The position numbers and the translations under genes are program-made. Shown here piece after piece: positions 7,933 to 29,222 of a DNA stretch of 42,515 nt. Source of the DNA: a candidate division FCPU426 bacterium (GTDB lineage Bacteria > Oederibacteriota > PGYV01 > Palsa-1178); NCBI GenBank assembly GCA_003167475.1, contig PMTB01000098.1, positions 1-42,515 on the forward strand, in the 5' to 3' direction. Under the pieces are notes generated by a model that was not told where the DNA came from, searched no databases, and saw only the letters and a program-made list of their open reading frames with translations. Each line of letters opens with the position of its first letter. Positions within the stretch are counted from its first letter, which is position 1.

Positions 7933-7946
7933 AGGGGGTAAGGGCT

Positions 7947-8147
7947 ATGATGCTGAAGCAGGCGATTTACGAGGATGAAAAGGTTCTGAATTCCTCCTCG
8001 AGGACTGATTTTTACGCCGCGGTAAAACTGGCGCTGCTGCCGCTGCTTGACCCGGCTGAGAGGGAAAGGTTCCTTTCAATGGCTGAAGAGGCGCAGGAAG
8101 ATTATATGTCGGGTATTTTATCCGGAGTCAAGGTGATAAAAGCCTGA
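7947..8147 (+). CDS. Small hypothetical protein (66 aa), apparent paralog of 7741-7932
   Basis: RBS AAGGGGGTAAGGGCT-ATG. The segment LDPAERERFLSMAEEAQEDYMSGILSG aligns with LSEEDRKKLLTLDRKTMEKYLYRAMAEG in the preceding ORF. Confidence 0.55.
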   Translation: MMLKQAIYEDEKVLNSSSRTDFYAAVKLALLPLLDPAERERFLSMAEEAQEDYMSGILSGVKVIKA

Positions 8148-8148
8148 T

Positions 8149-12551: not shown

Positions 12552-14999
12552 TTAAACGGCTATACTTCCGACAAGGAACGGTTTTGACCCCTGCAGGAAG
12601 TCATTTTTGTCCGCGTCCGGGGCGCCGGAGAGTCCCGTCAGCTCATCCAGGACCGCGTTCCAGTTGTACTCATTGAGCACCATCTGCCGGGCCTGTTTTT
12701 GCATTTCATACAGCGCCGGGTTATGTGTTTGGCTCATGAAAATAAGTTTGTTGATCTTTTCCGCCCAGTCATTTATGTCGTTTGCCCGCGCCACGAAACC
12801 GGTGACCGAGTCCTTCACGATTTCCTTTGGGCCTCCGGCGTTGGACACCACCGCCGGAACAGCGCAGGACTGGGCCTCGAGCACCGACATGCCAAAGGTA
12901 TCGGTGTTGCTCGGGAAGACAAAGATATCCGCGCCGGAAATAATGGCCGGCATGACCTGCTGTGCGTGTTTTCCTGTAAAGAAGACCCTTTTTAATGCGC
13001 GGTATTTTTCCTTCAATGCCGCAAGCGACGGGCCGTCGCCGGTTATTATAAGGTTCAAAGAACTGTTCTGCTGGGAAAGTTTCTTGTATACCGACAACAG
13101 GAAATCAAGGTTCTTGTCCTCTGAAACCCTGCCTGTATACAAAAGCGTAACGCCTTCGGGCAGTCCTATCAATTCCCTTAAAAATGTCCTTCCGCCCTCG
13201 CGCGGCGAAAACAAGGCCGCGTCTATGCCGCGCTTGAACAGCGTCATTTTTGAGGGGTTAAAACCGCGGCTTTCCAGTATATCGATGTATTCGGCGGACG
13301 GGACCTTTATCTCGTCCATTGAAGAGTAAAACCAGCGCGTGTAGGACTCTATGATCCCGGTCGCGGATTCGTCATTTATCAGGTTCACGGACTGGGAAGT
13401 GAAGTCGGTGTGATACACGCCCGTGCATTTGGTGCCGGTGAGCTTCGCCGCGAGGTACCCAAGAAGTCCCACAGGGCCGGGGGTCGAGATTATTATCTCA
13501 TCCGGCTCAAAGGCGTATATTTGCCTTATGGATTCCAGCACCGACGGTATCTTGACGCTATATTTGTCGTAATAAGGTATCTTAAAAGTGTGTATGAACG
13601 GGAAGTTTATGGTTCCCGGAGGTATGGAGGCGTTCATCTCATCCTTTGGAATGCTGGTCGCTATCGTGATGTTCCTTTTGTGCAGGTGCGAGTTCCATCC
13701 CAGCGTCTTGAGCGTGACAGACACGCCGTTCAAGTCGTTCAGTGTGTCGGTGAACCAGAGTATTTTTTTACCGCCCTTTTTCCTCAAAGCCTCAAATGAT
13801 TCTGCGTATTTATTGACGACGGAGCGGCCCTTGTAAATGTGCTTGATAGTCGTGAAAAAGGGCGCTGAAAGGAAAAGCGTCATTATGGAAGAAGATACAT
13901 TTTTGATAAGTGAAGCCATGTCGCCTTTGGCAAAGTCGGTTTCCGCGGAAATAAGCAGGTTTTTAAGGAAAGTATCCGCAATGCCGGTTATCTTGGAATA
14001 CACAATATCAAGTTTATCCTCGGCCGGGAGCTCGTTAGAGTCCTTCAGTGAGTCTACAAGGTCGACTATAAGCGACTGTATATCAGGCGCGTTCTTGCCG
14101 CCGAAATATTTCGCTTTGCTTACTTTCAGGTTGTTTTTTATCCCGAGTTTTTTCTTTTCGAATATATACTCCGTGAGCTGGCTTATGATCGAGCCGGACA
14201 TACCGGAGCCTTTTCTTTTTGAAAAATCATAGGCTATCTTGTAGATAGCGAAAGCCAGGCCCTTGAAATCATTATTGCGGCCGCCCGCAAAAGTGGTCTT
14301 GTCCCTGAGCGCTTCCAGGTATTGGGCCGGGGTTACGGCGTTTTCGGCGCAGGTGAATGTCCTGCCGATGAATATGCCCGCATGGTCATCCGAGCCGCCG
14401 GTAAAACCCTTGACCCACGGGTCGCAGCTCATCGGTTCTATCTTATATTTGTCATAAAGCGTTTCCACGTATGCCTGGTCCAGGTTCTTCAGTATCGAAG
14501 TCCAGGTCGAGTTGCTTGAAGAGTCCCTGCTGCCGTTTATACTTTCAAAAACGTCGAAAAGGAGGATGAGCTTTTCCAGGTGGCTGACATCGAGTTTTCC
14601 GTTGACCGAATATGATGCATGCGCCACGGAGTAGGCTATAGAGTGTTCTTTTATGAAATTCCGGAGTTTATATATATCGGTCCTGAGTTTCTGCACCCTC
14701 ATAAACTCCTCTTCGGTAATTCCGTAAAGAAGTATATGCACCTTGCATCCGTCCTCGGGAAAGTAAGCTGTCACTTCAACTCCTGTAAAAGTGTCGGACG
14801 GGTGCTTCGCGTGCAAAAGAAAGGATCCTTCTATGGTGTTATGGTCGGTGATCGTGACGAAATCCATGCCCTTTTCTTTGGCTTCCTTATAGATGAATTC
14901 CGGCTCGGTGTAACTCTCCGACGCGCCTATCCTTTGCAGGAACCATTCCGAAGGGTGTTCCGAGTATCTTGAGTGGACGTGAAGGTCTGTTTTTGCCAT
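12552..14999 (-). CDS. PHP-domain phosphoesterase fused to a GT4 (group 1) glycosyltransferase
   Basis: N-terminal PHP motifs: DLHVHSRYSEHP, TITDHN, GVEVTAY, KVHILLYG, FTGGSDDHAG. The C-terminal ~380 aa form a GT-B/GT4 domain (ILWFTDT..., LLYTGRVSEDKNLDFL, FVFPSNTDTFGMSVLEAQSCAVPAVVSNAGGPKEIV). RBS AGGAGA upstream. Confidence 0.85.
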   Translation of the reverse strand: MAKTDLHVHSRYSEHPSEWFLQRIGASESYTEPEFIYKEAKEKGMDFVTITDHNTIEGSFLLHAKHPSDTFTGVEVTAYFPEDGCKVHILLYGITEEEFMRVQKLRTDIYKLRNFIKEHSIAYSVAHASYSVNGKLDVSHLEKLILLFDVFESINGSRDSSSNSTWTSILKNLDQAYVETLYDKYKIEPMSCDPWVKGFTGGSDDHAGIFIGRTFTCAENAVTPAQYLEALRDKTTFAGGRNNDFKGLAFAIYKIAYDFSKRKGSGMSGSIISQLTEYIFEKKKLGIKNNLKVSKAKYFGGKNAPDIQSLIVDLVDSLKDSNELPAEDKLDIVYSKITGIADTFLKNLLISAETDFAKGDMASLIKNVSSSIMTLFLSAPFFTTIKHIYKGRSVVNKYAESFEALRKKGGKKILWFTDTLNDLNGVSVTLKTLGWNSHLHKRNITIATSIPKDEMNASIPPGTINFPFIHTFKIPYYDKYSVKIPSVLESIRQIYAFEPDEIIISTPGPVGLLGYLAAKLTGTKCTGVYHTDFTSQSVNLINDESATGIIESYTRWFYSSMDEIKVPSAEYIDILESRGFNPSKMTLFKRGIDAALFSPREGGRTFLRELIGLPEGVTLLYTGRVSEDKNLDFLLSVYKKLSQQNSSLNLIITGDGPSLAALKEKYRALKRVFFTGKHAQQVMPAIISGADIFVFPSNTDTFGMSVLEAQSCAVPAVVSNAGGPKEIVKDSVTGFVARANDINDWAEKINKLIFMSQTHNPALYEMQKQARQMVLNEYNWNAVLDELTGLSGAPDADKNDFLQGSKPFLVGSIAV

Positions 15000-15057: not shown

Positions 15058-15116
15058 TTAATCCAATGTTAATTTCCGGTTAATTCCACGAGAGGCCATA
15101 TTAACGATAAATTAAA
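15058..15116. promoter_or_regulatory. Five phased TTAAY repeats (candidate Pho boxes) in the divergent PHP-GT4 / GAK-cluster promoter region
   Basis: TTAAT at 15058, 15069 and 15080 have exact 11-bp spacing. TTAAC at 15101 and TTAAA at 15112 are also 11 bp apart. Confidence 0.45.
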
Positions 15117-15160
15117 AATTAATTTACCGGCTGTTAATTGGCGGTGTGTATAAGTGTGGC

Positions 15161-16360
15161 ATGACAAAAAAACTAAAAGTGTTTGAGACAGGCGTAAGCG
15201 CCAAGGCGTCAAAAGGGCTTGAGTATGAGTTTATTGACACCCGCGAAATAAGCGGGGATATTGAAGAGTGGGAACTTAAGGCTTTTTTACGGGTTGTGTC
15301 GGCTGAATTAAGCCCGGAGCAGGAAGACGCCATAGTCAATCCCGGGAATTCTTTTCACCTTCAGCAGGATGTCCTGGCGGTTCACTGGCATCCCGAACAC
15401 ATTCCCTTTACCATGTTAAAGCAGAGGATAGCGAAGCTTTATCCGGACGCTACAAACACGCTTATAATTCCGACCCAGCACAATACGCTGCTGGAATTCG
15501 ACGGCTATGCGGGTCTTGAGATAGATTGCTACTCCCCGGAATTTGACAGGAAGGTGCAGTTGCTGCTCCACTTTACTTCGGAAAAGGCCCTTGCGGCGGA
15601 TAAGATCAGGGTTATGGCGGAGCACACATTCAAATACAGGTCAAAACAGCTTTTTGAAATACTTCACACCCTTACAGAGCCGGCTTTGGACGGCCCGCTT
15701 TATAAAGCCATGGAATCCACGGAAGCCGGGGAAAATATCGTCGGGTTTGTAAAAATATACGCGGGTAAACTTATCAAACTGATAGAAGAAAACGAGGGCT
15801 CCATAAAGCCCGATTTCATAAAAAACAAGATCATACGGGATTTTTTTGATGAATTAAGGGAAGTGTACGACGGGCATGTCATCAACCTGTCGCAGATATT
15901 CATCAAGGCCGTCAAGGAAAATGTCAAGGCTGTGTTTTCGCCGAAATATTTCTATAAGACCCAGGATGTAATTTCCGAAGCAAGGCTCTGCGGAGGCGGG
16001 ATCGTGGTTCCGCATCCGGAGCAGTTCTGGCCCATACTGCTCGCCGATTATGACGTGGATGGTTTCGAGGTCTGGAACCCGCAGTCCAGGCAGTATACGG
16101 AGTTCCTCACAGGCGTTGTGGCAAGGAACAATAAGGGCAGGAAAAATCAGGACAGGCCGCTGCTTGTTTTTATGGGGGATGACACTCATATGGGGGAAAA
16201 GATAAAGAAACCGTCGCTGCGGGACCCTGATAAAGCCTCGCGCGAAATAGGAATGCAGCCTGCCTGGGACGACCTTGATATACGGCAGGCTCTTAAGGAT
16301 TCGCGCGTTTCAAGGGCGCAGACTATAAATGAATACAGGCAAAGGCTCGACCAGGCCTGA
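15161..16360 (+). CDS. Divergent PHP-like phosphoesterase-family protein (first gene of the GAK-type cluster)
   Basis: PHP-like motifs AVHWHPEH, VVPHPEQFW, DGFEVWNPQS and FMGDDTHMG resemble the HxH, HP, EvxN and GxDxH motifs of the neighbouring PHP-GT4 protein. I prefer the ATG at 15161 to the listed GTG at 15146. Confidence 0.65.
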   Translation: MTKKLKVFETGVSAKASKGLEYEFIDTREISGDIEEWELKAFLRVVSAELSPEQEDAIVNPGNSFHLQQDVLAVHWHPEHIPFTMLKQRIAKLYPDATNTLIIPTQHNTLLEFDGYAGLEIDCYSPEFDRKVQLLLHFTSEKALAADKIRVMAEHTFKYRSKQLFEILHTLTEPALDGPLYKAMESTEAGENIVGFVKIYAGKLIKLIEENEGSIKPDFIKNKIIRDFFDELREVYDGHVINLSQIFIKAVKENVKAVFSPKYFYKTQDVISEARLCGGGIVVPHPEQFWPILLADYDVDGFEVWNPQSRQYTEFLTGVVARNNKGRKNQDRPLLVFMGDDTHMGEKIKKPSLRDPDKASREIGMQPAWDDLDIRQALKDSRVSRAQTINEYRQRLDQA

Positions 16361-16377
16361 TAACGGGAGGTGTATGA

Positions 16378-16665
16378 ATGTCGGGTTCAAACGAGGATTT
16401 TAAGTATGAGTCCCTTCAGGACAGGAACTCCATCGCCAAGTACCTGGACGCTTTAAAGGACGGTTTCTCCAGCGGGAAACTTATTTTGGGAAGCAAGGAA
16501 AAGCAGATTGTTTTCGAGCCGTCGGGGCTTTTAAGGCTTGAGGTAAAAGCCAAACGGAAGGGCGACAAGGTGAAGATCAGCCTGAAATGCAGCTGGCGGG
16601 AGCAATCACAGACAAAAGAACAAAAAGGCGAGTCTCTTGTAATAGAGTCAAAAAAGCAGGGGTGA
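16378..16665 (+). CDS. Amphi-Trp domain small protein, paralog 1
   Basis: The 95-aa protein aligns without gaps to the three ORFs at 20340-21413, with invariant G, P, A, K and W (SWRE). RBS GGGAGGTG upstream. Confidence 0.75.
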   Translation: MSGSNEDFKYESLQDRNSIAKYLDALKDGFSSGKLILGSKEKQIVFEPSGLLRLEVKAKRKGDKVKISLKCSWREQSQTKEQKGESLVIESKKQG

Positions 16666-16668
16666 TGA

Positions 16669-18312
16669 ATGGAATTCATCAAGGCAATAGAACAGAACTT
16701 CAAGTTCATGACGCTTGAGGTAACAAAACAGCTTGAAGATACAATGAAACTGCTGGAGTCCCCGTCAAAGGCCCTTGCGGATAAAATAAGGTCCAGGGAT
16801 GACTATATAGATAACATGAAAAGTATTATCGAGAACAAGAATTCCTCATATGTCGCGGCATGCCAGAATCTTGACAAAAAGACGCTCAATAATGTCTGGG
16901 CGCTCAACACCATAGCGCATAACCTCGAGCACATAGCCGATCTGGCGGTGAATATCACGGATCAGACACAGTATTTTTCCGACCCGGGGAGCATGAAGCG
17001 GTATGACTATCACTCTTTCTTTAAAAAAATATTTGACGCACTGGCAATCACACCCAGGGCTTTTTTAACCGGCTCGATAAGCCACGCGCTTAAAATATGC
17101 AATGCCGAACACGAGATGGATTTGTTATACGCAATCGAACTGAAAAACGTCATAAACGAACTGAAATTCTCCCGCGACGCGGGCAACCTTATAACGGTTA
17201 TTTTTATATTCCAGTTCGCAGAGCGCATAGGAGACTCGCTTTTGAACATAGGCGAGGCGGTCATATCATCTGTAATGGGCGAAAAAATGAAGATACACCA
17301 GTACCAGGCGCTTGAAGAGACCATAACGGACGAGGATGAAAAGAGCAGGGTATCCGAGTTTTCCCTTGAGTCGGTGGGCGAAACGCGTTCCGGCAGCCTT
17401 ATACGGAAAGTGTATGAACCCGGCAATGAGGCCTCGGCTTCGAAATGGGTGGTATTTAAGGAAGGCAACAAGGTCAAATTGGAGAAGGAAAAGGAAAATG
17501 TGGAGGCTTGGGAGAAAATATTCCCGGGCCTCCCCCCTAAAATATTCGGTTACCAGGCGAACGGAAAGAGCGCGTCGATTATTTTCGAGTACTTGAACGG
17601 CAGCAATATGAAGGACGTGGTTATCAATGAAAAGAACCCTGCCGTCAGGGAGGCCCTCGGCCTGACAGCGGCCACGCTTGACATGGCATGGACCCGGACA
17701 ATGAAAAAACAGCCTGTGCACGCAGGCTACCTTGACCAGCTCGCGTCGCGCATCGGGGATGTTTTCACGGCCCATCCGGATTTCATGATGCACGAGAACA
17801 AGATCGGCGGGCTGGAGCTTCCTTCGTTCGACCAGATGATAAAAAAGGCCGGCGCCATAGAGAAAAAAATGGAAGCGCCGTTCACGGTTTTTATACACGG
17901 CGATTTTAACGTGGACAATATCATTTTCAACAGGGAGGAGAGGCGCATCAACTTCATAGACCTTTACCGCTCTTCCTATAACGATTATGTACAGGATGTG
18001 TCGGTCTTTATAGTTTCAAATTTCAGGATGCCGTTCTTTGAGCCTGCCATACGCAGGCGTTTGAATTCCGTTATACATGATTTCCTTGGTTTTGCCTCTG
18101 ACTTCGCAAAAAGAAACGGAGACGTAACTTTTGAGGCAAGGCTCGCCATGGGGCTCATAAGATCGTTCATCACATCGACCAGATTTGAATTCAACCAGGA
18201 ATTCGCGAAACTGATGTATTTAAGGGCGCTTTACCTGATAGAAAAGGTCATCTCTCACGATGGAAAACCCTGGGAAGATTTCGAGGTTCACAGGGATGTT
18301 TTGATATATTAA
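16669..18312 (+). CDS. PhoU-like domain fused to an APH/choline-kinase-like phosphotransferase domain
   Basis: The N-terminal ~200 aa carry two PhoU repeats (RDDYIDNMK...LEHIADLAVNITDQ and AEHEMDLLYA...AERIGDSLLNIGEAV). These parallel the bona fide PhoU at 29367-30026 (NAIDMVE...LERIGDLAANIG; RDHEVDELY...LERMADHVTNIAEDI). The C-terminal domain has the kinase-like catalytic loop FIHGDFNVDNIIF and the metal-binding motif INFIDL. Confidence 0.8.
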   Translation: MEFIKAIEQNFKFMTLEVTKQLEDTMKLLESPSKALADKIRSRDDYIDNMKSIIENKNSSYVAACQNLDKKTLNNVWALNTIAHNLEHIADLAVNITDQTQYFSDPGSMKRYDYHSFFKKIFDALAITPRAFLTGSISHALKICNAEHEMDLLYAIELKNVINELKFSRDAGNLITVIFIFQFAERIGDSLLNIGEAVISSVMGEKMKIHQYQALEETITDEDEKSRVSEFSLESVGETRSGSLIRKVYEPGNEASASKWVVFKEGNKVKLEKEKENVEAWEKIFPGLPPKIFGYQANGKSASIIFEYLNGSNMKDVVINEKNPAVREALGLTAATLDMAWTRTMKKQPVHAGYLDQLASRIGDVFTAHPDFMMHENKIGGLELPSFDQMIKKAGAIEKKMEAPFTVFIHGDFNVDNIIFNREERRINFIDLYRSSYNDYVQDVSVFIVSNFRMPFFEPAIRRRLNSVIHDFLGFASDFAKRNGDVTFEARLAMGLIRSFITSTRFEFNQEFAKLMYLRALYLIEKVISHDGKPWEDFEVHRDVLIY

Positions 18313-18323
18313 AGGAGAAAAAA

Positions 18324-19211
18324 ATGAAAAACAAAAAGATCGGCGTTGTGGGCATAAAGGACGCGTGGTCGACCGAGATGCTGGCATCCGCCATAGAAAA
18401 ACGCACGGGTTTCTGCAGGATCATCGACGTTGAACAGTTGTCTGTCGACCTGGATTCAGGAAGGGCAATGCACGGCGGCGAGGATATTACGGATTATGAC
18501 GCGCTTATCATTAAAAAGATTGGCAGGGATTACAGCCCTGATATGCTCGACAGGCTTGAAATGCTCAGGTTTTTAAACCGGCGGGGCTTGAAAATATTCT
18601 CGAAACCCGAGAACATCATAAGGGTGCTGGACCGGATGTCGTGTACCGTGTCGCTAAAGCTCGGCGGGATACCGGTTCCGCCGACGGTGATAACGGAAGA
18701 TATAAATGAAGCGCTTGTGGCCGTAAAAAAGTTCAAGAAAGCGGTCTTCAAGCCTTTGTATTCCACCAAGGCAAGGGGAATGGAGATCATTTCCGATACG
18801 CCGCGGGCGCATGATGAAATTGAGAAGTTTAAGGAATCCGGAAATACGGTGATGTACGTGCAGAAAGCGATCGAGATAAAGGATATGGACCTCGGCCTTG
18901 TTTTTGTGGGAGGGGAATACCTTTCGACTTATGCCAGGGTAAAGCAGACTGACTCATGGAATACCACGACGCAAAGCGGCGGAAAATACAATATATTCAA
19001 CCCTTCAAAAGCCGTGATAAAACTCGCGGAAAAAGCACAGGCGATATTCGGCCTTGATTTTACATGCGTGGACGTGGTGGAAACCGATGACGGGCCGTAT
19101 GTCTTTGAGGTTTCCGCGTTCGGGGGTTTCAGGGGCGTTTACGAGTCAAGCGGAATAGAGGCCGCGGAAGTGTATTTAAACCATGTCCTAAAGGAGATCA
19201 AACATGCTTGA
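18324..19211 (+). CDS. RimK-like ATP-grasp ligase (GAK-system type)
   Basis: ATP-grasp layout: GIPVPPTVIT, AVFKPLYSTKARGM and VMYVQKAIE, with C-terminal DFTCVDVVETDDGPYVFEVSAFGGFRG. The stop overlaps the next gene by 8 nt. Confidence 0.85.
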   Translation: MKNKKIGVVGIKDAWSTEMLASAIEKRTGFCRIIDVEQLSVDLDSGRAMHGGEDITDYDALIIKKIGRDYSPDMLDRLEMLRFLNRRGLKIFSKPENIIRVLDRMSCTVSLKLGGIPVPPTVITEDINEALVAVKKFKKAVFKPLYSTKARGMEIISDTPRAHDEIEKFKESGNTVMYVQKAIEIKDMDLGLVFVGGEYLSTYARVKQTDSWNTTTQSGGKYNIFNPSKAVIKLAEKAQAIFGLDFTCVDVVETDDGPYVFEVSAFGGFRGVYESSGIEAAEVYLNHVLKEIKHA

Positions 19212-20322
19212 AAAAGTCAGCACTGTCACGGAAATCGCGGAAGCCCTGTCAACCGGACATGCGCCGGATCAGTCACTGAGGCTTGAGTTCGGGGAATGCA
19301 CCATCGAGGTAAAATCAGACTCAAAAGCCCTGATAGACAGGCTGAAGGAATATTATAAGGAATTTTTGGGGAAAAAATTGCCCGACATACAGGTGCTGGC
19401 TTTTGAGATCGCGGAACCCAAATTTGACTTTATTTTCATGAAAAAACCGCCCGAGCCGGGAAAATCAAAGATCAAAGAGGAGTTTTTTGATTTGCGCGAC
19501 GGAAGGGTGGTAAGAAAAATACTCACGGGGATGTATTTCATTTTCGGCCGCGGCATTAACATCGCGGCCGGCAACTGCCTGCAAAATTACAACCAGGTGG
19601 TCAACTTTATAAACAACAGGTATATAGAGAGGATGATAAAAAGGGAGTGCATGCTCATGCACGCGGCGGGGGTGGTGCTCAAGGGCAAAGGCATCGCGAT
19701 CGCCGGGTTCGCGGGAAGGGGCAAATCAACGCTCGCGCTTACCCTGCTCAACCGCGGGTTGAAATTTCTAAGCAACGACAGGGTGATGGTGAAAAAATAC
19801 GACGGCGGCACCCGCATGTACGGCATACCAAAACTTCCCAGAGTGAACCCGGGCACCATACTCTCCAACCCGGTACTGGGGAAAATACTCACCGAAGAAG
19901 AACGGCATGAATTTGAAAAATACACCCCGGAAAAGCTCTGGGAACTTGAGCATAAGTTTGACGTCGACATAAGCGAGATATACGGCTCCGACAGGTTCTC
20001 TCTTCAGGCGGAGATGAAAGCGCTGGTCATAATCAACTGGGACCGCAACGGGGACGAACCATTCGCCATAACCGAGGTTGACCTGGTCGGACGGCCTGAC
20101 CTTGTGCACGCGTATATGAAACTGCCGGGTTTGTTCTTCGAAATGTCGGAAGATACCAAACCCCCGGATTTTTCCGAAGCCGCCTATATAAACTGCATGA
20201 AAAGCTGCAGGGTTTTTGAGATAACGGGTTCGGTGAATTTTGAGGAAGCGGCCGAACACTGCATAAGCCTGCTTGAGGACGTAAAAACAGCCGGTATTAC
20301 CGGCCTGAACGCAAGTAAATAA
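19204..20322 (+). CDS. HPr-kinase-related P-loop kinase (HprK-related kinase B type)
   Basis: The Walker A segment GIAIAGFAGRGKSTLALTLLNRG followed by LSNDRV matches the HprK/P core GxSGxGKS...DD. It is translationally coupled to the ATP-grasp gene. Confidence 0.8.
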   Translation: MLEKVSTVTEIAEALSTGHAPDQSLRLEFGECTIEVKSDSKALIDRLKEYYKEFLGKKLPDIQVLAFEIAEPKFDFIFMKKPPEPGKSKIKEEFFDLRDGRVVRKILTGMYFIFGRGINIAAGNCLQNYNQVVNFINNRYIERMIKRECMLMHAAGVVLKGKGIAIAGFAGRGKSTLALTLLNRGLKFLSNDRVMVKKYDGGTRMYGIPKLPRVNPGTILSNPVLGKILTEEERHEFEKYTPEKLWELEHKFDVDISEIYGSDRFSLQAEMKALVIINWDRNGDEPFAITEVDLVGRPDLVHAYMKLPGLFFEMSEDTKPPDFSEAAYINCMKSCRVFEITGSVNFEEAAEHCISLLEDVKTAGITGLNASK

Positions 20323-20339
20323 TATGGGGAGGTTTTGAA

Positions 20340-20627
20340 ATGGGAAAAAAGGAGATCAAGCTTAAAGGCAATCTGGAGACCGTGAAAACCGCCGAGTACC
20401 TGATCGACCTGGCGACAAGCCTGAAAGCCGGGGACGTGTACATCCAGAAAGGCGGGGAATTCGTTTCGTTAAAACCGGGCGCAGTTGTGGATTTTGAGAT
20501 CGAAGCGGTGAAGAAAAAACACAAGGAAAAGCTGGTCATCGAGATAAGCTGGCACACCGACGGCAAGGATGAATTCGGAGGTGATGAAATGAAAATTTCC
20601 TCGCCTGATTTAAAAGAGGCGAAATAA
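20340..20627 (+). CDS. Amphi-Trp domain small protein, paralog 2
   Basis: 95 aa, RBS GGGGAGG. Conserved core AEYLIDLATSLKAGDVYIQKGGEFVSLKPGAVVDFEIEAVKKKHKEKLVIEISWH. Confidence 0.75.
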   Translation: MGKKEIKLKGNLETVKTAEYLIDLATSLKAGDVYIQKGGEFVSLKPGAVVDFEIEAVKKKHKEKLVIEISWHTDGKDEFGGDEMKISSPDLKEAK

Positions 20628-20693
20628 GCGTATCCGAAAAAAGACGGTATGAATATCCCGGCTTTTAAGCCGAGGAAAAACAAGGAGGATGAC

Positions 20694-21023
20694 ATGGGAA
20701 AAAAAGAAGTCGAAATGAAGTCGAAGATGGAGATCGAAAAGGCAATCGAGGTAATTGAAAGCCTTCTTGCCGGCCTTAAAAAAGGCAAGGTTTTTGTGCA
20801 GCACGGCGATAAGGTAATAGAGATCACGCCTGAGAAAATGGTAAAACTGGAAGTTGAAGCCGAGCAGAAAAAGGACAAGGAAAAGATATACGTCAAGATG
20901 ACGTGGCATAAAAAGGACCTCACAAAAGAGATCGAAAAAACCATCAAACACAAGGAAAAAGAGGACGAAAAAGTTTTCAAGATAACCCAGACCGCTCCGG
21001 TCATTGAAAACGGCAAGAAATAG
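20694..21023 (+). CDS. Amphi-Trp domain small protein, paralog 3
   Basis: The start is set at the internal ATG 20694, preceded by AGGAGG (20683-20688). This gives MGKKEVEMK, parallel to MGKKEIKLK of paralog 2. The listed ORF start (20649) lacks an RBS. Core ...GLKKGKVFVQHGDKVIEITPEKMVKLEVEAEQKKDKEKIYVKMTWH. Confidence 0.7.
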   Translation: MGKKEVEMKSKMEIEKAIEVIESLLAGLKKGKVFVQHGDKVIEITPEKMVKLEVEAEQKKDKEKIYVKMTWHKKDLTKEIEKTIKHKEKEDEKVFKITQTAPVIENGKK

Positions 21024-21056
21024 GAAAATGGCGTTTTACGGCCGAAAGGATGCAAA

Positions 21057-21413
21057 ATGGGATCGGACAAAAAGACCGTAAATTATGAAGGCCTGATCAG
21101 GACTTCCAAGGCCTGCGAATACCTTGAAGGCGTGCTATCCGGGCTTAAAGCCGGGGCTATTTACATTAAAAAATCCGACGGTTGTACGGTCTTAAAACCG
21201 TCCGGGGGATTGAAACTTAAGGTAACGGCCTCGGAAGGCAGTGAAAAAAAGAAACTGAAGATCGCAATGAAGTGGCGCAGGGATGAGGACAGTTCGGACG
21301 GCGGAGAGCTTTTAATAACGCCGACTGAAATTGTCGAAGCGCTCGGGCTTTTTATGAAGAAAAAATCCGCCGCACGGGCAATCAGCAAAAGGCGGGCCAA
21401 GAATAAACAATAA
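21057..21413 (+). CDS. Amphi-Trp domain small protein, paralog 4 (basic C-terminal tail)
   Basis: Core CEYLEGVLSGLKAGAIYIKKSDGCTVLKPSGGLKLKVTASEGSEKKKLKIAMKWR. It has an extra C-terminal tail, KKKSAARAISKRRAKNKQ. Confidence 0.7.
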   Translation: MGSDKKTVNYEGLIRTSKACEYLEGVLSGLKAGAIYIKKSDGCTVLKPSGGLKLKVTASEGSEKKKLKIAMKWRRDEDSSDGGELLITPTEIVEALGLFMKKKSAARAISKRRAKNKQ

Positions 21414-21522: not shown

Positions 21523-21539
21523 TTAACGGAATCTTAACA
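21523..21539. promoter_or_regulatory. Candidate Pho box TTAACG-N5-TTAACA upstream of phoB
   Basis: The TTAAC copies at 21523 and 21534 are 11 bp apart. The second repeat, TTAACA, is -35-like, and CATAAT lies 18 bp downstream (21558-21563). Autoregulation of phoBR is expected from other systems. Confidence 0.45.
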
Positions 21540-21608: not shown

Positions 21609-22289
21609 ATGGAAAAACTTATAGCGGTTGTGGATGACGAGGATGATATAAGAGAGCTTGTTTCCATTAACCTGAAAAAAGCCGGGTTTAAGGTAAAGGA
21701 ATTTTCCGACGCGGACGCCATGATAAAGTCCCTCGCAAAGGCGACCCCGGACCTGATAATCCTCGACTTGATGATGCCGGGCACTGACGGCCTGGAAGCC
21801 TGCAAAATACTCAAAAAAGACGCGAGATACAGTTCTATTCCTATTATAATGCTGACAGCCAAGGCTGACGAAGCTGATAAAGTTGTGGGCCTTGAGCTTG
21901 GCGCGGATGATTATGTGACAAAACCGTTCTCTCCCAGGGAACTCACCGCGCGGGTAAAAGCAGTGCTCAGGCGGAAAGCGACTGTTGCGGAAGAAAATGA
22001 ACTTTTGGAAATAGGCAGTATCACCATAGACCTCCAGAAACATGAGGTCCTGGTCAAAGGAAAAAAAACAGAGCTTACCGCCACGGAATTCAGGATATTG
22101 CAGCTGCTTACGGAAAAAAGGGAGCATGTGCTTTCACGCGAGCAGCTTCTGGACAACCTGTGGGGGAATGAAAAAGTGGTTGTCGACAGGACTATAGACG
22201 TGCATATCAAGCACCTTAGGGAAAAATTGGGGCCGGCCGGCAAGATGATAATAAATGTCCGCGGCGTCGGTTATAAGATAGAAAAATGA
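21609..22289 (+). CDS. phoB: Phosphate regulon response regulator PhoB (OmpR family)
   Basis: Receiver domain (VVDDEDDI, LIILDLMMPGTDG, LTAK) plus a winged-helix output domain (LTATEFRILQLL, RTIDVHIKHLREKL, VRGVGYK). It overlaps phoR by 4 nt and lies next to pst. Confidence 0.9.
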   Translation: MEKLIAVVDDEDDIRELVSINLKKAGFKVKEFSDADAMIKSLAKATPDLIILDLMMPGTDGLEACKILKKDARYSSIPIIMLTAKADEADKVVGLELGADDYVTKPFSPRELTARVKAVLRRKATVAEENELLEIGSITIDLQKHEVLVKGKKTELTATEFRILQLLTEKREHVLSREQLLDNLWGNEKVVVDRTIDVHIKHLREKLGPAGKMIINVRGVGYKIEK

Positions 22290-24016
22290 AAAGAACCCTA
22301 TTTTCACGGATACTCTCCGGGTACGCCGCGGTAATAGCGGCATTCTCCATCATATTATTCTTCCTATTTTCAAACACCGTAAGGACCCAGGTCATGAACA
22401 ATTCCGAATCCGCGCTCAGGGGATATACCGTCATATTAAAAAGCGTTGTTGAGCCTTTCATCAAATCGGAAAATTACAGCGGGCTTGAAAAAGCCGTAAT
22501 AGGCCTGAAGCCGGGCACAGACGTGAGGTTCACGGTCATAAATAAATTCGGGAAAGTCCTGGCCGATTCCGATAACAATCCGCAGACAATGGACAACCAT
22601 GTGAACAGGCCCGAAGTCAGGGCCGCCCTTGAAGGCAGGGAGGGAAAAGCGGTGCGTTACAGCAACACAATGAGCGAGGACATGCTGTATGTGGCGGCGC
22701 CTTATAAATCCGAAGGCGGAGCCGTATCCGTGGTAATGAGGGCAAGTATGCCGCTTAGCGACATAAAAATATTCATAAGCGGGTTTAACCGCGACCTGTT
22801 AAAGGCGCTTTTGGCCGCTTTGGCCGCGGCTTTTGCCGCCGCCTACTTTTTTTCGAAATACCTGTATAACCCCGTAAAAGAGCTCGCCGAGGCCTCTAAA
22901 AAGGTGGCTAACAAGCAGTTTGACACAAGGGTATCGCTCCGCGGCCGTGATGAGATGAGGGAACTTGCGGAGAATTTCAACTTTATGACCTCCCAGATAA
23001 AGGAACTTTTTGAAGAGGTCTCCGAGAAACAAAAACAACTGGACTCGATCATAGACTCCGTCGCGGAAGGCCTCATAGTGACCGATGACAAGGGGAAGAT
23101 AATACTCATCAATAAAAGTTTCCGTAAAATCTCGGGCACGGAATGCTCGGCCGGCAATTATTACTGGGAGTGTTTTATGCCGGTCAGGTTCAATCAATTT
23201 GTGGAAAACGGCCTAAAAACAAAAAAATACTTCGTAGAGCAGATCGATATAAATGAAAGGGTGTTCCTGTGCAATGTGAATTTCCTGGAGGAAAAGAAAC
23301 AGGCCGCTTTTGTCCTTTATGATATCACCGAATTCAAGGACCTTGAGAGGATCAAAAAGGATTTTGTCGCGAATGTTTCCCATGAATTAAGGACGCCGCT
23401 CACGGCGATCAAGGGTTTTGCCGAAACGCTGGAACTTGGCACAAAGGACCCGGAATCAAGGCACTACCTGGAGATCATCAAAAAGAACACGGAACGCCTC
23501 ATTAACATAGTTGCGGACCTGCTCACCCTGTCACAGCTTGAACAGATGGAAAAACTGCTGGAAAACGAGAAGGTTGATGTGGCCGCCCTTATAACGAACG
23601 CGGTCAAAATATCGGAACAACTTATAAAAGCAAAGGGCCTTGCGCTAAGCGTTGAGATTGCGCCCGGCTTGCCAATGATAAAGGGCGATGTGTTCAGGCT
23701 GGAACAGGTTTTCATCAACCTTATCGATAACGCGGTCAAATATACTGAAAAAGGCAATATCACCATAAGCGCCTCGATTGAGGAAAAAAACATAAAAGTG
23801 GTCATATCCGACACGGGCATTGGCATCCCCGCCGAGCAGTTGCCCAGGATATTCGAGCGCTTCTATGTAGTCGACAAATCCCGTTCAAGAAAACTCGGGG
23901 GCACGGGACTGGGACTTTCAATTGTAAAGCATATTGTCATGTTGCACCAGGGCAAGATCTCGGTTGAAAGTTCGACAGGCTCCGGCACCACAATCACTGT
24001 ATTACTCCCTGTTTAA
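22286..24016 (+). CDS. phoR: Phosphate regulon sensor histidine kinase PhoR-like
   Basis: Two TM segments, HAMP and PAS regions, the H-box FVANVSHELRTPLTAIKGF, and HATPase N/G boxes (NLIDNAVKYT, DTGIGIP, GGTGLGLSIV). The phoR call rests on its pairing with phoB and its pst context. Confidence 0.85.
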   Translation: MKRTLFSRILSGYAAVIAAFSIILFFLFSNTVRTQVMNNSESALRGYTVILKSVVEPFIKSENYSGLEKAVIGLKPGTDVRFTVINKFGKVLADSDNNPQTMDNHVNRPEVRAALEGREGKAVRYSNTMSEDMLYVAAPYKSEGGAVSVVMRASMPLSDIKIFISGFNRDLLKALLAALAAAFAAAYFFSKYLYNPVKELAEASKKVANKQFDTRVSLRGRDEMRELAENFNFMTSQIKELFEEVSEKQKQLDSIIDSVAEGLIVTDDKGKIILINKSFRKISGTECSAGNYYWECFMPVRFNQFVENGLKTKKYFVEQIDINERVFLCNVNFLEEKKQAAFVLYDITEFKDLERIKKDFVANVSHELRTPLTAIKGFAETLELGTKDPESRHYLEIIKKNTERLINIVADLLTLSQLEQMEKLLENEKVDVAALITNAVKISEQLIKAKGLALSVEIAPGLPMIKGDVFRLEQVFINLIDNAVKYTEKGNITISASIEEKNIKVVISDTGIGIPAEQLPRIFERFYVVDKSRSRKLGGTGLGLSIVKHIVMLHQGKISVESSTGSGTTITVLLPV

Positions 24017-24039: not shown

Positions 24040-24078
24040 TTAATTAAAAATTAACATTCAAATCATTTGAAATTAACC
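24040..24078. promoter_or_regulatory. Candidate Pho boxes upstream of the porin gene
   Basis: TTAAT at 24040, TTAACA at 24051 and TTAACC at 24073 give spacings of 11 and 22 bp. TATACT lies 9 bp downstream, at 24088-24093. Confidence 0.45.
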
Positions 24079-24240: not shown

Positions 24241-25350
24241 ATGAAAAAGGCAATTAGTTTTGGACTGGCTTTGGCTTTTGTTCTTTCGTTCTTCGTTGTC
24301 GCTTCTGCAGAACCAGTATCTTTGTTTTATGGACAGCAGTGGGACAGATACGATTATCAGGTTTTTGGCGGATCCTATGTTGCTGTACCTGCAAAAAGCA
24401 ACAACACATTCACCATACCCAGGACTTACCTCAGGTACAAGCTGACAGACGACGCGCTCGGCTATGAGGGAAACATCACTCTCGACATCAACAACGTAAA
24501 CGACGGCGAGAATTCCAAAATCACAATTACTGGTGGAAATGTCACCGCGGCCGGCGGAATTGACTGGGCAATATGGGTCAAAAAAGCATCTGTGGATTTC
24601 AAGAAGATACCCATCCTTTCTGATATAGACGCAATCATCAGGGTCGGACAGCAGGATGTATACTTCGGAGCCATAGACACATGGCAGTATCCTGTTATAG
24701 AGAAAGCAATGGAAGACAAGAACAGCATCGTAAGCAGCGCGGACCAGGGAATAGCGCTTCTCGGAAAGATACCCCAGGGTTACGGAGCGTATGAGCTTGC
24801 GGTTTACAACGGCTCGGGATACAAAACAACGGATAATGACGCGACAAACGGCGACATAACGGATAAGGCGTATGACGCCAGCTTGCTTTTGACGCCTATA
24901 GCGGGTATATATGCAAGGGCTTCTTACCTGCACAAATTGACAAATTCGCTTGGAACGAAGACAGCGGCGTATAACGCATCGGCATTTGTAGTAGGCGGAG
25001 CTTCCGGCCCGATAGAAGCTTTTGTGGAATACGTAACGGATAACGCGGCAAAGAATCATGTGGCGGGTACCAAATCAGGTGTTGCTGTCGGAGTATCGGG
25101 ATACATTGGCGTAAAACTTGCCGATGCATTATCAGTGCATTTCAGGGCGGATACATACAACCCGGACACACTGGTCAAGCTTGACGAAATGAACACGTTC
25201 ATCGTGGGCATGAACCTGAAGCTCACAAGCATGACAGTGTTACAGCTTAACTATCAGCTGGATAAATTCGTGCACACCATGCACGGCGCAAGCGACAACA
25301 ACCTGACGAACAACAACCAGTTCCTGGCCCAGTTGGTATGGTCCTGGTAA
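24241..25350 (+). CDS. Outer-membrane beta-barrel porin, possibly phosphate-selective (OprO/P-like by context)
   Basis: Signal peptide MKKAISFGLALAFVLSFFVVASA. The sequence alternates with a Y/G/T-rich pattern and has an aromatic C-terminus, LVWSW. It lies between phoR and pstS behind Pho-box-like repeats. Family assignment is by context only. Confidence 0.65.
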   Translation: MKKAISFGLALAFVLSFFVVASAEPVSLFYGQQWDRYDYQVFGGSYVAVPAKSNNTFTIPRTYLRYKLTDDALGYEGNITLDINNVNDGENSKITITGGNVTAAGGIDWAIWVKKASVDFKKIPILSDIDAIIRVGQQDVYFGAIDTWQYPVIEKAMEDKNSIVSSADQGIALLGKIPQGYGAYELAVYNGSGYKTTDNDATNGDITDKAYDASLLLTPIAGIYARASYLHKLTNSLGTKTAAYNASAFVVGGASGPIEAFVEYVTDNAAKNHVAGTKSGVAVGVSGYIGVKLADALSVHFRADTYNPDTLVKLDEMNTFIVGMNLKLTSMTVLQLNYQLDKFVHTMHGASDNNLTNNNQFLAQLVWSW

Positions 25351-25399
25351 GCAGATTAAGAAATAAAACAAGAATCTAAAATATAAAAAGGAGAAAAAA

Positions 25400-26242
25400 A
25401 TGAAAAACATCAACAAGTTAATCGGCGCGGCGGCAGTTGTTATGATGCTCGCAGCACCGGCTTTCGCCTGGAATTTTCCGTGGGCGCAGAAAGCGGCTAA
25501 TAAACTTAACATGACAGGTTCCACGACAGTCCTTCCGATAGCCCAGGCAGAGGCCGAGGCTTTCATGAAGTCCAATAAAGAAGCGGACGTATCGGTTTCA
25601 GGCGGCGGCTCGGGAGTGGGGATCGCGGCTGTAATTGACGGGTCAACGGATATCGGAAACTCTTCAAGGCCGATCAAGTCAAAAGAGATCGTAACGGCGA
25701 AACAGAAAGGCGTTAACCCTGTAGGCACCATAATCGCCAATGACGGTATAGCCGTTGTTGTCAACAAAGGCAATAAACTGGAAGCTCTCAGCCTCGACCA
25801 GCTCAAGGCGATCTATTCCGGGGAAATCACAAAATGGAGCCAGCTGGGCGTCGAAGGCGACACGATAGTCATCGTATCCAGGGACACAGCTTCAGGCACA
25901 TTTGAAGTATTTAACGAACTCGTGTTAAAGGGCGCGAAACTGCGTACTGATTCGCTCATGCTCGCGTCAAACAAAGAAGTGGCTGAGACCGTGATGAAGA
26001 CTCCGGGAGCCATCGGCTATGTGGGACTGGGATACCTCTCGTCAGACCTGAAAGCTGTCACAGTGAACGGCGTTATGCCTTCCGACAGCACGGTTCTTGA
26101 CGGAACCTACAAGCTCGCAAGGCCGCTGTTTATGTACACCAACGGCGAACCTTCCGGGCTCGCAAAAACCTTCATTGATTTCATACTCAGCGATGAAGGC
26201 CAGAAAATAGTGAAAGAATCGGGTTTTGTTAAAATAAAGTAG
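25400..26242 (+). CDS. pstS: Phosphate ABC transporter substrate-binding protein PstS
   Basis: Signal peptide, then GSTTVLPIAQ...VSVSGGGSGVGI...GNSSRPIK...IVSRDTASGT, which is typical of the PstS family. Confidence 0.9.
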   Translation: MKNINKLIGAAAVVMMLAAPAFAWNFPWAQKAANKLNMTGSTTVLPIAQAEAEAFMKSNKEADVSVSGGGSGVGIAAVIDGSTDIGNSSRPIKSKEIVTAKQKGVNPVGTIIANDGIAVVVNKGNKLEALSLDQLKAIYSGEITKWSQLGVEGDTIVIVSRDTASGTFEVFNELVLKGAKLRTDSLMLASNKEVAETVMKTPGAIGYVGLGYLSSDLKAVTVNGVMPSDSTVLDGTYKLARPLFMYTNGEPSGLAKTFIDFILSDEGQKIVKESGFVKIK

Positions 26243-26270
26243 CCCTCCAAAGGCGAAATACCGCTCTTTG

Positions 26271-26304
26271 CCACAGGCCCGCTTCATGCGGGCCTGTGGC
26301 TTTT
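26271..26304 (+). terminator. Rho-independent terminator after pstS
   Basis: A 12-bp perfect GC-rich stem CCACAGGCCCGC / GCGGGCCTGTGG with a 5-nt loop (TTCAT), followed by CTTTTCC. Confidence 0.8.
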
Positions 26305-26414
26305 CCATAAGATCAAAAACGTTCAGATTAGGAGATAGGTGAGAGTAGAAAAACGAGGTGTAGGGGCGGATATTATGCGCAACTCGCAGGACTGCGTTTT
26401 GGCTGGAAAATTAA

Positions 26415-26453
26415 TTAACACAACCTTAACAATTCCCAAACATTGCATTAATA
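26415..26453. promoter_or_regulatory. Candidate Pho boxes and internal promoter upstream of pstC
   Basis: TTAACA at 26415 and TTAACA at 26426 are 11 bp apart, and TTAATA at 26448 is a further 22 bp. TATAAT is at 26461-26466. Confidence 0.45.
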
Positions 26454-26519
26454 ACTAAAATATAATATATATATAGCAGCAGGCCGGATCAAACAAATTA
26501 AAGAGGAAAAGGATATATA

Positions 26520-27398
26520 ATGGCAACCCATAAAGGAATGAGAAAGAACTTTATAGAGTGGATCCTACCCCTGACAGCATCCGTATCGCTGGTTTTTTTG
26601 CTTGGGATTGCGTGCACCCTTGTAGCCGCCTCACTGCCGGTGTTTAAGTCGGTTACTCTTCAGGGATTTTTATTCGGTAAAGAATGGATACCGACCGCTG
26701 AAACCCCGTCATTGGGGATATGGTCGCTTATGATTGCCTCACTTTATGTGACACTGGGCGCCATTATATTTGCCCTGCCACTTGGTTTGGGAAGCGCTGT
26801 TTATATAGCCGAACTCGCGTCGCCCACCGTAAAAGAGGTCCTTAAACCTGTGATGGAAATACTGGCCGGTATACCTTCGGTGGTTTTTGGTTTCTTTGGC
26901 ATAGTATTTGTGGCCCCGATAGTCCAGCGTCTTTTTCACCTAGACACAGGCTTGTGCGGATTTACGGCCGCGATTATCCTCGGCATAATTGTGATCCCGA
27001 CCGTGGCGAGCATCTCTGAAGACGCTGTGTCGGCCATATCCAAGGACTTAAGGAACGCTTCATACGCCCTCGGCGCGAACAGATGGGAAACCATAATAAA
27101 AGCCGTGCTGCCCGCGGCAAAATCCGGGATATTCACGTCGATAATACTTGGGATAAGCAGGGCGCTTGGCGAGACGATGACGGTATTAATGGTGGCCGGC
27201 GGGGCAGTGAAGATACCGACAGGGCTTTTTGTGCCCATGAGGCCGATAACCGCGACCATAGCGGGGGAAATGGGAGAGACAGTGGTGGGCAGCCCGCATT
27301 ATCACGCCCTGTTTGCCATGGGACTTGTTCTTTTTATAATAAATATTATTTTCAACCTTGTGGCTGACAGGTTCCAGAAGGGAAAAAGAAATGTTTAA
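26520..27398 (+). CDS. pstC: Phosphate ABC transporter permease PstC
   Basis: Polytopic permease with the EAA-type loop (ASYALGANRWETIIKAVLPAAKSGI) in the pst gene order. Confidence 0.9.
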   Translation: MATHKGMRKNFIEWILPLTASVSLVFLLGIACTLVAASLPVFKSVTLQGFLFGKEWIPTAETPSLGIWSLMIASLYVTLGAIIFALPLGLGSAVYIAELASPTVKEVLKPVMEILAGIPSVVFGFFGIVFVAPIVQRLFHLDTGLCGFTAAIILGIIVIPTVASISEDAVSAISKDLRNASYALGANRWETIIKAVLPAAKSGIFTSIILGISRALGETMTVLMVAGGAVKIPTGLFVPMRPITATIAGEMGETVVGSPHYHALFAMGLVLFIINIIFNLVADRFQKGKRNV

Positions 27399-28275: not shown

Positions 28276-28444
28276 AATCAACACATGAGACAAAGCATGC
28301 GGAGCATGCAAGGACAAAAGCGGAAAATCCGAAAGCCGGGAACAGGAAAAAAGCGGCCCGGCCCGTACAGGACAGTTTTTCAACCTGGCTGGCATTAAGG
28401 GAATGTTTCACCTGCATGGAGTAAATCTATAATAGGAGCTTAAT

Positions 28445-29209: not shown

Positions 29210-29222
29210 GGCAGGCAAGTTG

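Follow-up and report, generated by a model that had tools for sequence, protein, structure and literature searches.

A GAK-type gene cassette with a PhoU-fused kinase and a PHP-fold protein, and its probable tie to phosphate starvation

The 42,515-nucleotide contig PMTB01000098.1 (assembly GCA_003167475.1) of a candidate division FCPU426 bacterium, analyzed here over its full length and referred to below as the window, carries a gene cassette that is a member of the GAK system, a system catalogued by gene context alone. Its eight co-directional open reading frames (ORFs), g1 to g8, occupy the + strand at 15161–21413. Three points emerge as new. First, the conserved unit includes two more enzymes that have no family model, a predicted PHP-fold phosphoesterase and a PhoU::kinase fusion. 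Second, the unit appears to divide into two sub-modules that differ in the type of amphi-Trp small protein they include. Third, promoter motifs and repeated, independent linkage to pst, phoU, and phoB genes tie the cassette to phosphate starvation, and thus supply a condition in which its function can be sought. Taken as a whole, we consider it slightly better than an even bet that the locus is a GAK cassette within the Pho regulon whose enzymes form a writer/eraser set acting on the amphi-Trp proteins.

The GAK core and its conserved extension

Each of the three defining families of the GAK system is represented in the window by proteins that score above the curated cut-off of the corresponding hidden Markov model (HMM), and their genes are adjacent and co-directional, bearing out the GAK-type assignment that an earlier, sequence-only reading had given this DNA. 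The ATP-grasp ligase g4 (18324–19211, + strand), of the RimK/MptN type, matches TIGR04356 (grasp_GAK) over its full length (446.4 bits, E = 3.4e-134, cut-off 300), with MptN (158 bits), rimK_fam (113 bits), LysX (84 bits), and, more weakly, CofF as runner-up models. The HprK-related kinase B g5 (19204–20322, +) is likewise a full-length match to TIGR04355 (HprK_rel_B; 452.4 bits, E = 1e-135, cut-off 200). It carries the P-loop GFAGRGKST that had been noticed earlier, and its invariant residues include G168, G171, G173-K174-S175-T176, and N191-D192-R193. Four amphi-Trp small proteins pass the TIGR04354 cut-off of 31 bits: g2 (16378–16665, +; 74 bits), g6 (20340–20627, +; 57 bits), g7 (20694–21023, +; 58 bits), and g8 (21057–21413, +; 41 bits). 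Homologs of g7 have MGKKEV N-termini, which fits a start at 20694; an alternative ATG lies at 20649. The g8 protein is a divergent paralog with a basic C-terminal tail and a net charge of +12, and its Pfam score (21 bits) is under the cut-off of 27.

The two remaining genes are g1 (15161–16360, +), the first gene of the cassette, which encodes a 399-amino-acid protein with a divergent PHP fold, and g3 (16669–18312, +), which encodes a PhoU module fused to an APH/choline-kinase-type kinase. From g1 to g8 the intergenic spacings are, in order, 17, 3, 11, −8 (an overlap), 17, 66, and 33 nucleotides. These spacings and the gene coordinates agree with the sequence-only reading, whose count of seven genes does not stand, as its own list names eight. 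A promoter/terminator scan found no convincing internal + strand terminator between g1 and g8, and an Rfam search of the whole window matched no RNA element. A known anti-phage defence system was also considered and dismissed, as PADLOC anti-phage defence models gave no matches among seven of the proteins.

The distribution of the cassette was surveyed with an alignment of HprK-B proteins, a query that is neutral with respect to g1 and g3. At least 411 of ~185,000 species-representative genomes encode an HprK-B relative, and these carriers span Thermodesulfobacteriota, Nitrospinota, Planctomycetota, Acidobacteriota, and candidate phyla. Loci were fetched from the best 80 of the 411 with 10-kb flanks, and their six-frame ORFs were searched with the proteins of the window (L-numbers below denote these loci). 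In the 56 loci that offer 5.6 kb or more of upstream sequence, the ATP-grasp gene is present in all 56, the PhoU::kinase gene in 54, the upstream amphi-Trp gene in 54, and g1 in 53, with the PhoU::kinase gene and g1 placed in the order found here. Since the PhoU::kinase and PHP-fold genes are near-universal in the surveyed loci, they are not specific to this locus; the sequence-only reading had described the cluster as extended with these modules, whereas both are standard parts of the cassette. Gene order is also the same around PhoU::kinase homologs from Desulfolutivibrio, Nitrospinota, Desulfocarbo, and two close relatives.

Other components come and go. A CofD-like gene lies 3′ of the HprK-B kinase gene in 52 of 70 loci (TIGR04357, 510–546 bits), and a gene for an XXXCH-domain protein, identified by TIGR04358, precedes g1 in 29 of 55. 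Downstream amphi-Trp genes number zero, one, or two in 28, 31, and 11 loci, respectively. The conserved form of the cassette is therefore (XXXCH)–PHP-fold–amphi-Trp–PhoU::APH-type kinase–ATP-grasp–HprK-B–(CofD-like)–amphi-Trp(s), with the genes in parentheses present in only part of the loci. In the window, a phmmer search of six-frame ORFs with two TIGR04357-positive proteins found no CofD-like homolog, and no XXXCH homolog occurs anywhere in it, so the earlier remark that both partners are missing here was correct. The peculiarity of the window is thus that it lacks the CofD-like and XXXCH genes and has three downstream amphi-Trp paralogs.

Some loci depart from the conserved form. Three of them (L022, L071, and L083) have ATP-grasp and HprK-B genes but neither g1 nor the upstream amphi-Trp gene nor the PhoU::kinase gene, and the Desulfolutivibrio locus is without an ATP-grasp gene. 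These absences suggest, at the level of gene content, that the cassette is built from two sub-modules, each with its own amphi-Trp type. In L083, pta-ackA lies between the HprK-B kinase and the CofD-like gene. Two loci from Desulfatiglandales (L033 and L037) are reordered, and run g1, amphi-Trp, PhoU::kinase, CofD-like, amphi-Trp, ATP-grasp, HprK-B.

Both of these enzymes carry motifs that are invariant among homologs, and the catalytic motifs of the g3 kinase are intact. In g3, residues ~1–210 form the PhoU part (Pfam PhoU, 69 bits over two repeats) and residues ~240–547 an APH/choline-kinase-type kinase (Pfam APH, 40.7 bits against a gathering threshold of 23.2) with further matches to the EcKL and choline-kinase families, confirming the fusion that the sequence-only reading had described. 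The N-terminus aligns end to end with the PhoU structures 1t72 and 4q25. Across 42 homologs, four (D/E)xxxD motifs of the PhoU part are invariant (D44/D48, E87/D91, E147/D151, and E185/D189), as are the ATP-binding K264, the H410-G-D412-x-N414-x-x-N417 loop, and the metal-binding D431 of the kinase part. Against the PhoU equivalog model TIGR02135, g3 scores 70 bits over model positions 7–211 of 212. As this is under the cut-off of 130, and as the domain is fused to a kinase, g3 has the architecture of a PhoU domain and is not a PhoU ortholog. The g3 family has at least 1038 members at E ≤ 1e-10.

The assignment of g1 is structural. No model in Pfam (including PHP, PF02811) or NCBIfam matches g1 at E ≤ 0.01, and a g1-family profile built from 65 homologs has no match among Protein Data Bank (PDB) sequences. 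The AlphaFold2 model of g1, however, is confident (predicted local distance difference test, pLDDT, 90.8; predicted template-modelling score, pTM, 0.87), and its four best Foldseek matches in the PDB, each with a probability of 1.0, are all PHP phosphoesterases: BAD_1165 (3e0f and 3o0f), Vibrio RNase AM (9etk), and the Chromobacterium pAp phosphatase (2yb1). E-values for these matches range from 4e-6 to 1.4e-3 and template-modelling (TM) scores from 0.36 to 0.55, the latter depressed by a helical insertion of ~120 residues that the PHP matches do not share. Residues invariant in the 65-member alignment include H75-x-H77, H107-N108, E120, D122, H137, H285, and D340-D341-x-H343, among others. 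Of these, H75/H77, H107, E120, H137, H285, and D341/H343 are candidates for the metal-ligand set of PHP enzymes (HxH, H, E, H, H, DxH). An hhalign comparison of g1 with the PHP domain of the adjoining PHP-GT4 protein, described below, places TQHN, GxE, and KVxLLxH on PHP motifs, with a probability of only 9.8%. The earlier label "PHP-like" is thus right at the level of fold, with support from motifs; among the families named for the cassette proteins, profile searches recover amphi-Trp, grasp_GAK, HprK_rel_B, PhoU, and APH, but not PHP. We conclude that g1 has a divergent PHP fold, and the model predicts a metal-dependent phosphoesterase. Its family comprises more than 1500 homologs, all annotated as hypothetical, and is conserved to an unusual degree, with ~50% identity across phyla.

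The amphi-Trp proteins fall into two types with fixed positions and distinct motifs, as judged from 71 upstream-type and 56 downstream-type homologs. The upstream type, to which g2 belongs, is always encoded directly 5′ of the PhoU::kinase gene, and its N-terminus bears a conserved and seemingly disordered motif, F-x-[YH]-E-S-x-Q-D (FKYESLQD in g2), the ESx[QE]D core of which is found in 56 of 71 upstream-type proteins versus none of the 56 downstream-type proteins. The downstream type, represented by g6 and g7, starts with MGKKE. An hxI[ST] strand is conserved after its invariant Trp in 40 of 56 proteins, and a variable tail completes the sequence. The AlphaFold2 model of g2 (pLDDT 79, and >85 for residues 11–70) consists of one helix and a four-stranded sheet, and has no significant neighbor in the PDB (best E-value 0.55). 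A resemblance to the Sm/Hfq topology was considered and found no support. An amphi-Trp profile searched against 1.84 billion representative proteins returned 1894 clusters, nearly all of them stand-alone proteins of 85–150 amino acids, and no informative domain fusion emerged among them. A general role in binding polyphosphate or nucleic acids through basic tails was rejected: for the tails of downstream-type proteins the median net charge is −3, and of 14 long tails just 3 are strongly basic. In one surveyed locus, L001, the XXXCH protein encoded before g1 (7806–8426) has a degenerate amphi-Trp-like N-terminus (TIGR04354, 18.7 bits, under the cut-off), which if real would be a third flavor of small-protein domain placed before the PHP-fold enzyme; the XXXCH protein of L023 (5095–5712) gives no amphi-Trp-like match.

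Evidence for phosphate-starvation control

Upstream of g1 lies a cluster of Pho-box-like direct repeats with a TTAA core (15058–15138), in a promoter region shared with the divergently transcribed PHP-GT4 gene. TTAAY starts at 15058, 15069, and 15080 with exact 11-bp phasing, a three-repeat pattern expected only 0.03 times by chance in the window. Further copies begin at 15101 and 15112, with the same 11-bp spacing yet one base off the phase of the first three, and at 15134; of the five 11-bp-phased repeats counted by the sequence-only reading, three are therefore exact and two are shifted, and a sixth copy is to be added. Over the whole window, TTAAY-N6-TTAAY occurs 13 times versus 0.72 expected. 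The 37 kb of coding DNA contain none of these matches, all 13 being confined to 5.5 kb of intergenic DNA; in composition-matched shuffles of the intergenic segments, matches averaged 0.13 and never exceeded 4. The region upstream of g1 is the densest of these sites.

Other sites fall at the promoters of Pho genes. TTAAC-N6-TTAAC overlaps a −35-like hexamer of the phoB promoter (21523–21538, +) and recurs before pstC (26415–26430, +). TTAAY repeats at 24040, 24051, and 24073 (24040–24077, +) precede the unit that contains pstS, and TTAAT-N6-TTAAT (31426–31441, − strand) lies in the gap before the phn operon. The genes concerned follow directly downstream of the cassette: phoB (21609–22289, +; Pfam Response_reg and Trans_reg_C), phoR (22286–24016, +; Pfam HAMP, HisKA, and HATPase_c), a gene for a 369-amino-acid protein, unk369 (24241–25350, +), and then pstS, pstC, pstA, pstB, and phoU, the unit from unk369 to phoU spanning 24241–30026 (+) with phoU itself at 29367–30026. 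After the 31426–31441 repeat come a GntR-type regulator gene and a phnDCE-HIJKLM carbon–phosphorus lyase (phosphonate) operon that extends to 41251 (+). The Pho and phn genes of the sequence-only reading are thus as it listed them, except that its "porin", unk369, has no Pfam or other family match; unk369 keeps its position in L005, L006, L008, and L017.

The repeats are also found in relatives. In L005, L008, and L009, TTAAY-N6-TTAAY is present upstream of g1, phoB, unk369, and pstC, and in L017, a locus that stops short of g1, upstream of phoB and unk369. Extra clusters of matches, one or two each, occur in L008, L009, and L017, and no match in these loci falls inside a listed gene. When the g1 promoters are compared between the window and L005, L008, and L009, the spacers vary while the TTAA cores are kept, and L018 and L052 keep repeats before g1 though no pho gene is found within 10 kb. 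Tandem repeats with a TTAA core, three of them in cyanobacteria, constitute the experimentally supported Pho box bound by PhoB of Synechocystis (PMC11126600).

Linkage to Pho genes recurs in other lineages and in several arrangements. In L011, L023, L036, L040, L062, and L069, which belong to Desulfococcus, Desulfobacteraceae, Desulfovibrionaceae, and Desulfurivibrio-type bacteria, pst(S)CAB-phoU is followed on the same strand by the cassette, with the XXXCH gene and then g1; the gap between the two is only 13 nucleotides in L040, and phoB follows phoU in L062 and L069. In L033 pstCA is divergent from g1, and in L037 the pst-phoU set is convergent. Altogether, 9 of 34 fully flanked loci, and 12 of 79 overall, have Pho genes no more than 10 kb from the cassette. 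Additionally, PIN-PhoH genes occur in nine further loci; a PhoH2-type PIN-PhoH gene within 10 kb was recorded for L013, L021, L025, L043, L050, L058, L067, L080, L087, and L007. Together, the repeats common to the phoB, pstS, and pstC promoters, the pre-phn gap, and the relatives, and the pst/pho adjacency in unrelated lineages, make the phosphate-starvation control proposed by the sequence-only reading plausible, and we regard it as likely, from these motifs and neighborhoods, that Pho control extends to the cassette in this lineage. The expected linkage to phoBR and pst is recurrent without being general.

Several observations count against this picture. Most loci, 67 of 79, lack pst, phoU, and phoBR genes at distances of up to 10 kb, and in the window the same motif also precedes a gene related to cheA (5207–6895; repeats at 5098–5189) and a CBS-GGDEF gene (1150–2124; repeat at 850–865). 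The orientation of the repeats is ambiguous since TTAA is palindromic, and the repeats upstream of g1 could serve the divergent GT4 gene only, or a regulator other than PhoB. A search of the literature found no published data on PhoB binding to the cassette or on its induction by phosphate limitation. The phosphate link could be incidental, with the repeats belonging to the GT4 gene or to another regulator and the cassette having an unrelated role in stress or signaling, a role for which EAL/GGDEF genes that recur near the cassette (about eight loci, directly upstream of g1 in L003 and L020) might speak. This we consider quite unlikely. Linkage recurs in several lineages and in varied arrangements (upstream on the same strand, divergent, and downstream), and ~26% of fully flanked loci are linked as against ~1% for a random gene, the latter being no computed control but our rough estimate, which assumes one or two pst loci in each 4-Mb genome. 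Moreover, a full PhoU module is built into a core kinase of the cassette, and in L018 and L052 the repeats at g1 are kept where no pho gene is near.

The sites at the cheA-like and GGDEF genes hint that chemotaxis and cyclic di-GMP genes share the regulator of the repeats, and matches near 1450–1550 in L008 and L009 are, by synteny, probably the counterpart of the cheA-like site. Other genes seen repeatedly near the cassette encode MgtE (five loci) and phosphatidylserine decarboxylase (five loci).

The divergent neighbor of g1 (12552–14999, −) encodes an 815-amino-acid fusion of a PHP-like domain (Pfam PHP, 17 bits, under the cut-off; N-terminal) and a GT4 glycosyltransferase (Glycos_transf_1, 119 bits; C-terminal). 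In 9 of 79 loci, drawn from several lineages, a homolog adjoins the cassette, mostly divergent from g1. By analogy with PlcP-Agt, a phospholipase/glycosyltransferase pair that remodels lipids during phosphate starvation, the PHP-GT4 fusion may be a lipid-remodelling enzyme of the same response. Downstream of phoU, a perfect 17-nucleotide inverted repeat (TTGTCATTGCGAGGAGC; 30087–30103 and 30229–30245, arms 125 nucleotides apart) precedes a low-molecular-weight-phosphatase/ArsC-like gene (30279–30713). The next ORF (30791–31153, +; 120 amino acids) belongs to the TauE/SafE family, matches model positions 127–237 only, and is probably a truncated gene, as only the C-terminal half of the model is covered.

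Possible functions of the cassette

We hypothesize the following mechanism. Upon limitation of inorganic phosphate (Pi), PhoB would occupy the phased TTAA-core repeats that lie between g1 and the PHP-GT4 gene and activate both transcription units. The cassette would then supply a writer/eraser set for the small amphi-Trp proteins. The PhoU-gated kinase would pair with the upstream-type protein, whose ESxQD motif is a candidate acceptor or docking site, and the HprK-related kinase B would pair with the downstream-type paralogs, which it could phosphorylate on Ser/Thr with ATP or pyrophosphate. The RimK/MptN-type ligase would attach an amino acid (probably glutamate) to a carboxylate, and dephosphorylation would fall to the PHP-fold enzyme. 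Phosphorolysis driven by Pi is established for HPr kinase/phosphorylase; if g5 could likewise undo phosphorylation with Pi, the state of modification would depend on Pi directly, as we propose. The PhoU module and the HprK-type chemistry would in this way together confer Pi sensitivity on the modification.

Support for the pairing of kinases with amphi-Trp types comes from the three loci that are without g1 and the PhoU::kinase gene and are also without the upstream amphi-Trp gene. There is also a precedent, in that an HprK-family kinase phosphorylates a co-encoded, ribosomally made peptide (PMC6993621). That the amphi-Trp proteins are the substrates is nevertheless something we only infer, and we would put its chance somewhat short of even. 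More doubtful still is the broader proposal that the cassette is an unrecognized, widespread branch of the phosphate-starvation response and acts as a Pi-sensing protein-modification switch, in which cellular Pi sets the modification of amphi-Trp proteins through the PhoU module and Pi-dependent phosphorolysis. Were the mechanism true, it would be a new system of protein modification responsive to Pi, in anaerobes with an important part in sulfur and nitrogen cycling; were the switch real, its target would be an abundant small-protein family with no detectable structural relative in the PDB.

Further points count against the overall reading. First, RimK and LysX extend a C-terminal Glu of their substrates, and no amphi-Trp protein has a C-terminal Glu that could act as such an acceptor; the commonest last residue of upstream-type proteins is Ser (20 of 71). 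Second, the nearest characterized relatives of g4, MptN and CofF, act on small molecules, and the presence of a CofD-like gene in most loci hints at small-molecule chemistry too. Third, the 80 loci surveyed are those most similar to the query kinase, and the frequencies, with the near-universality of the PhoU::kinase and PHP-fold genes, may therefore fail for the other 331 genomes. Finally, a literature search found nothing on the function of GAK or amphi-Trp proteins beyond one incidental mention in a proteomics study, in agreement with the earlier statement that no published substrate, chemistry, or phenotype is known; a phosphate-limitation fitness paper on Desulfovibrio alaskensis G20 likewise contains no information on the cassette.

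The chief competing explanation is that the cassette produces or recycles some small phosphorylated metabolite or a compound resembling a cofactor. CofD forms a phosphodiester in F420 synthesis, and a CofD-like enzyme, where there is one, could do the same to a small molecule phosphorylated by the APH/choline-kinase-type and P-loop kinases, with the MptN/CofF-like ligase adding glutamate to a carboxylate, the PHP enzyme trimming phosphate, and the amphi-Trp proteins serving as carriers, scaffolds, or regulators, not as substrates. The enzymes fit this scheme in several respects: the best characterized match of g4 is MptN at 158 bits, with LysX and CofF weaker; the relatives of the g3 kinase (APH, EcKL, and choline kinase) are small-molecule kinases; the structural neighbors of g1 (RNase AM and pAp phosphatase) are nucleotide or oligonucleotide phosphoesterases; and TIGR04357 genes accompany the cassette in the 52 of 70 loci noted above. 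However, the window and 17 other loci lack the CofD-like gene and keep all else, and no nucleotidyltransferase or obvious precursor-supplying gene recurs in the neighborhoods. Those HprK-family kinases whose substrates are known act on proteins or peptides, and one to four dedicated small proteins per locus, at fixed positions, are hard to see as bystanders. We consider this small-molecule scheme unlikely on balance, and the incidental phosphate link discussed above and the peptide scheme below less likely than it.

The tandem paralogs, conserved N-terminal domain, and hypervariable tails of the amphi-Trp proteins also recall precursors of peptides that are made on the ribosome and modified after translation (RiPPs), in which the 67-residue amphi-Trp domain would be a long leader and the variable tail a core modified by the ATP-grasp enzyme, with graspetide-like cross-links, and by the HprK-like kinase, as in phosphorylated lasso peptides. 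HprK-like kinases do act in lasso-peptide clusters (PMC6993621), homologs of g5 match the ScmC family, and g4 itself has weak matches to ATP-grasp RiPP maturase models (E = 1.9e-10 and 1.3e-7). These scores are far under the cut-offs (40 versus 350 bits for TIGR04187 and 31 versus 425 bits for TIGR04185), and the 80 neighborhoods show no recurrent protease, exporter, or RRE/PqqD gene. By its conservation, the hxI[ST] strand is best read as part of the fold, although the model of g2 does not resolve this strand, and the tails are often long, low-complexity stretches of Ala, Pro, and Lys. In Dissulfuribacter, the 20 most abundant cellular proteins include one of the amphi-Trp family (PMC13490349), and the pst/pho linkage speaks for an intracellular housekeeping role. 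A RiPP function is thus very unlikely.

Comparison with known systems

The system to which the locus belongs is the GAK system (TIGR04354, TIGR04355, TIGR04356, TIGR04357, and TIGR04358), of which the three defining families are present, adjacent, and co-directional in the window. The database definition of this system is drawn from gene context only, and differs from the cassette described here in having no model for the PhoU::APH kinase or the PHP-fold protein.

Each enzyme can also be set beside a better known one. PhoU, the accessory protein of PstSCAB-PhoR, is aligned by g3 over its whole length, with its four (D/E)xxxD motifs kept. Unlike PhoU, which is a stand-alone protein of ~220–240 amino acids, g3 is fused to a kinase, and the window has a separate canonical phoU at 29367–30026. 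For g1, the closest comparison is with TrpH/YciV-type PHP phosphoesterases (RNase AM, the Cv1693 pAp phosphatase, and BAD_1165), which are the best structural matches of its model and appear to have a similar pattern of invariant His, Glu, and Asp residues, whereas g1 has no Pfam PHP match and has an extra helical insertion of ~120 residues.

RimK (the ribosomal protein S6 glutamate ligase), LysX/LysW, MptN, and CofF are in the same ATP-grasp subfamily as g4, which nevertheless scores below the cut-off of every one of their models. The difference extends to the proteins that might be modified, as the amphi-Trp proteins do not end in the Glu that RimK and LysX substrates offer.

HPr kinase/phosphorylase, the substrates of which are HPr and Crh, shares its P-loop kinase domain with g5 (TIGR00679, E = 5.8e-8; Pfam Hpr_kinase_C, 32 bits), and g5 adjoins genes for small proteins that are possible substrates. 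Yet g5 is below the HprK cut-offs, and the amphi-Trp model of one helix and four strands matches no PDB entry significantly, although HPr structures are part of that database. Finally, the HprK-like kinases of lasso-peptide clusters (PsmK and the paeninodin kinase) act on a co-encoded ribosomal product, the phosphate of which is decorated further (PMC6993621). The GAK cluster differs from these clusters in that it is without a lasso cyclase, B-protein, and exporter, and its small proteins are folded domains.

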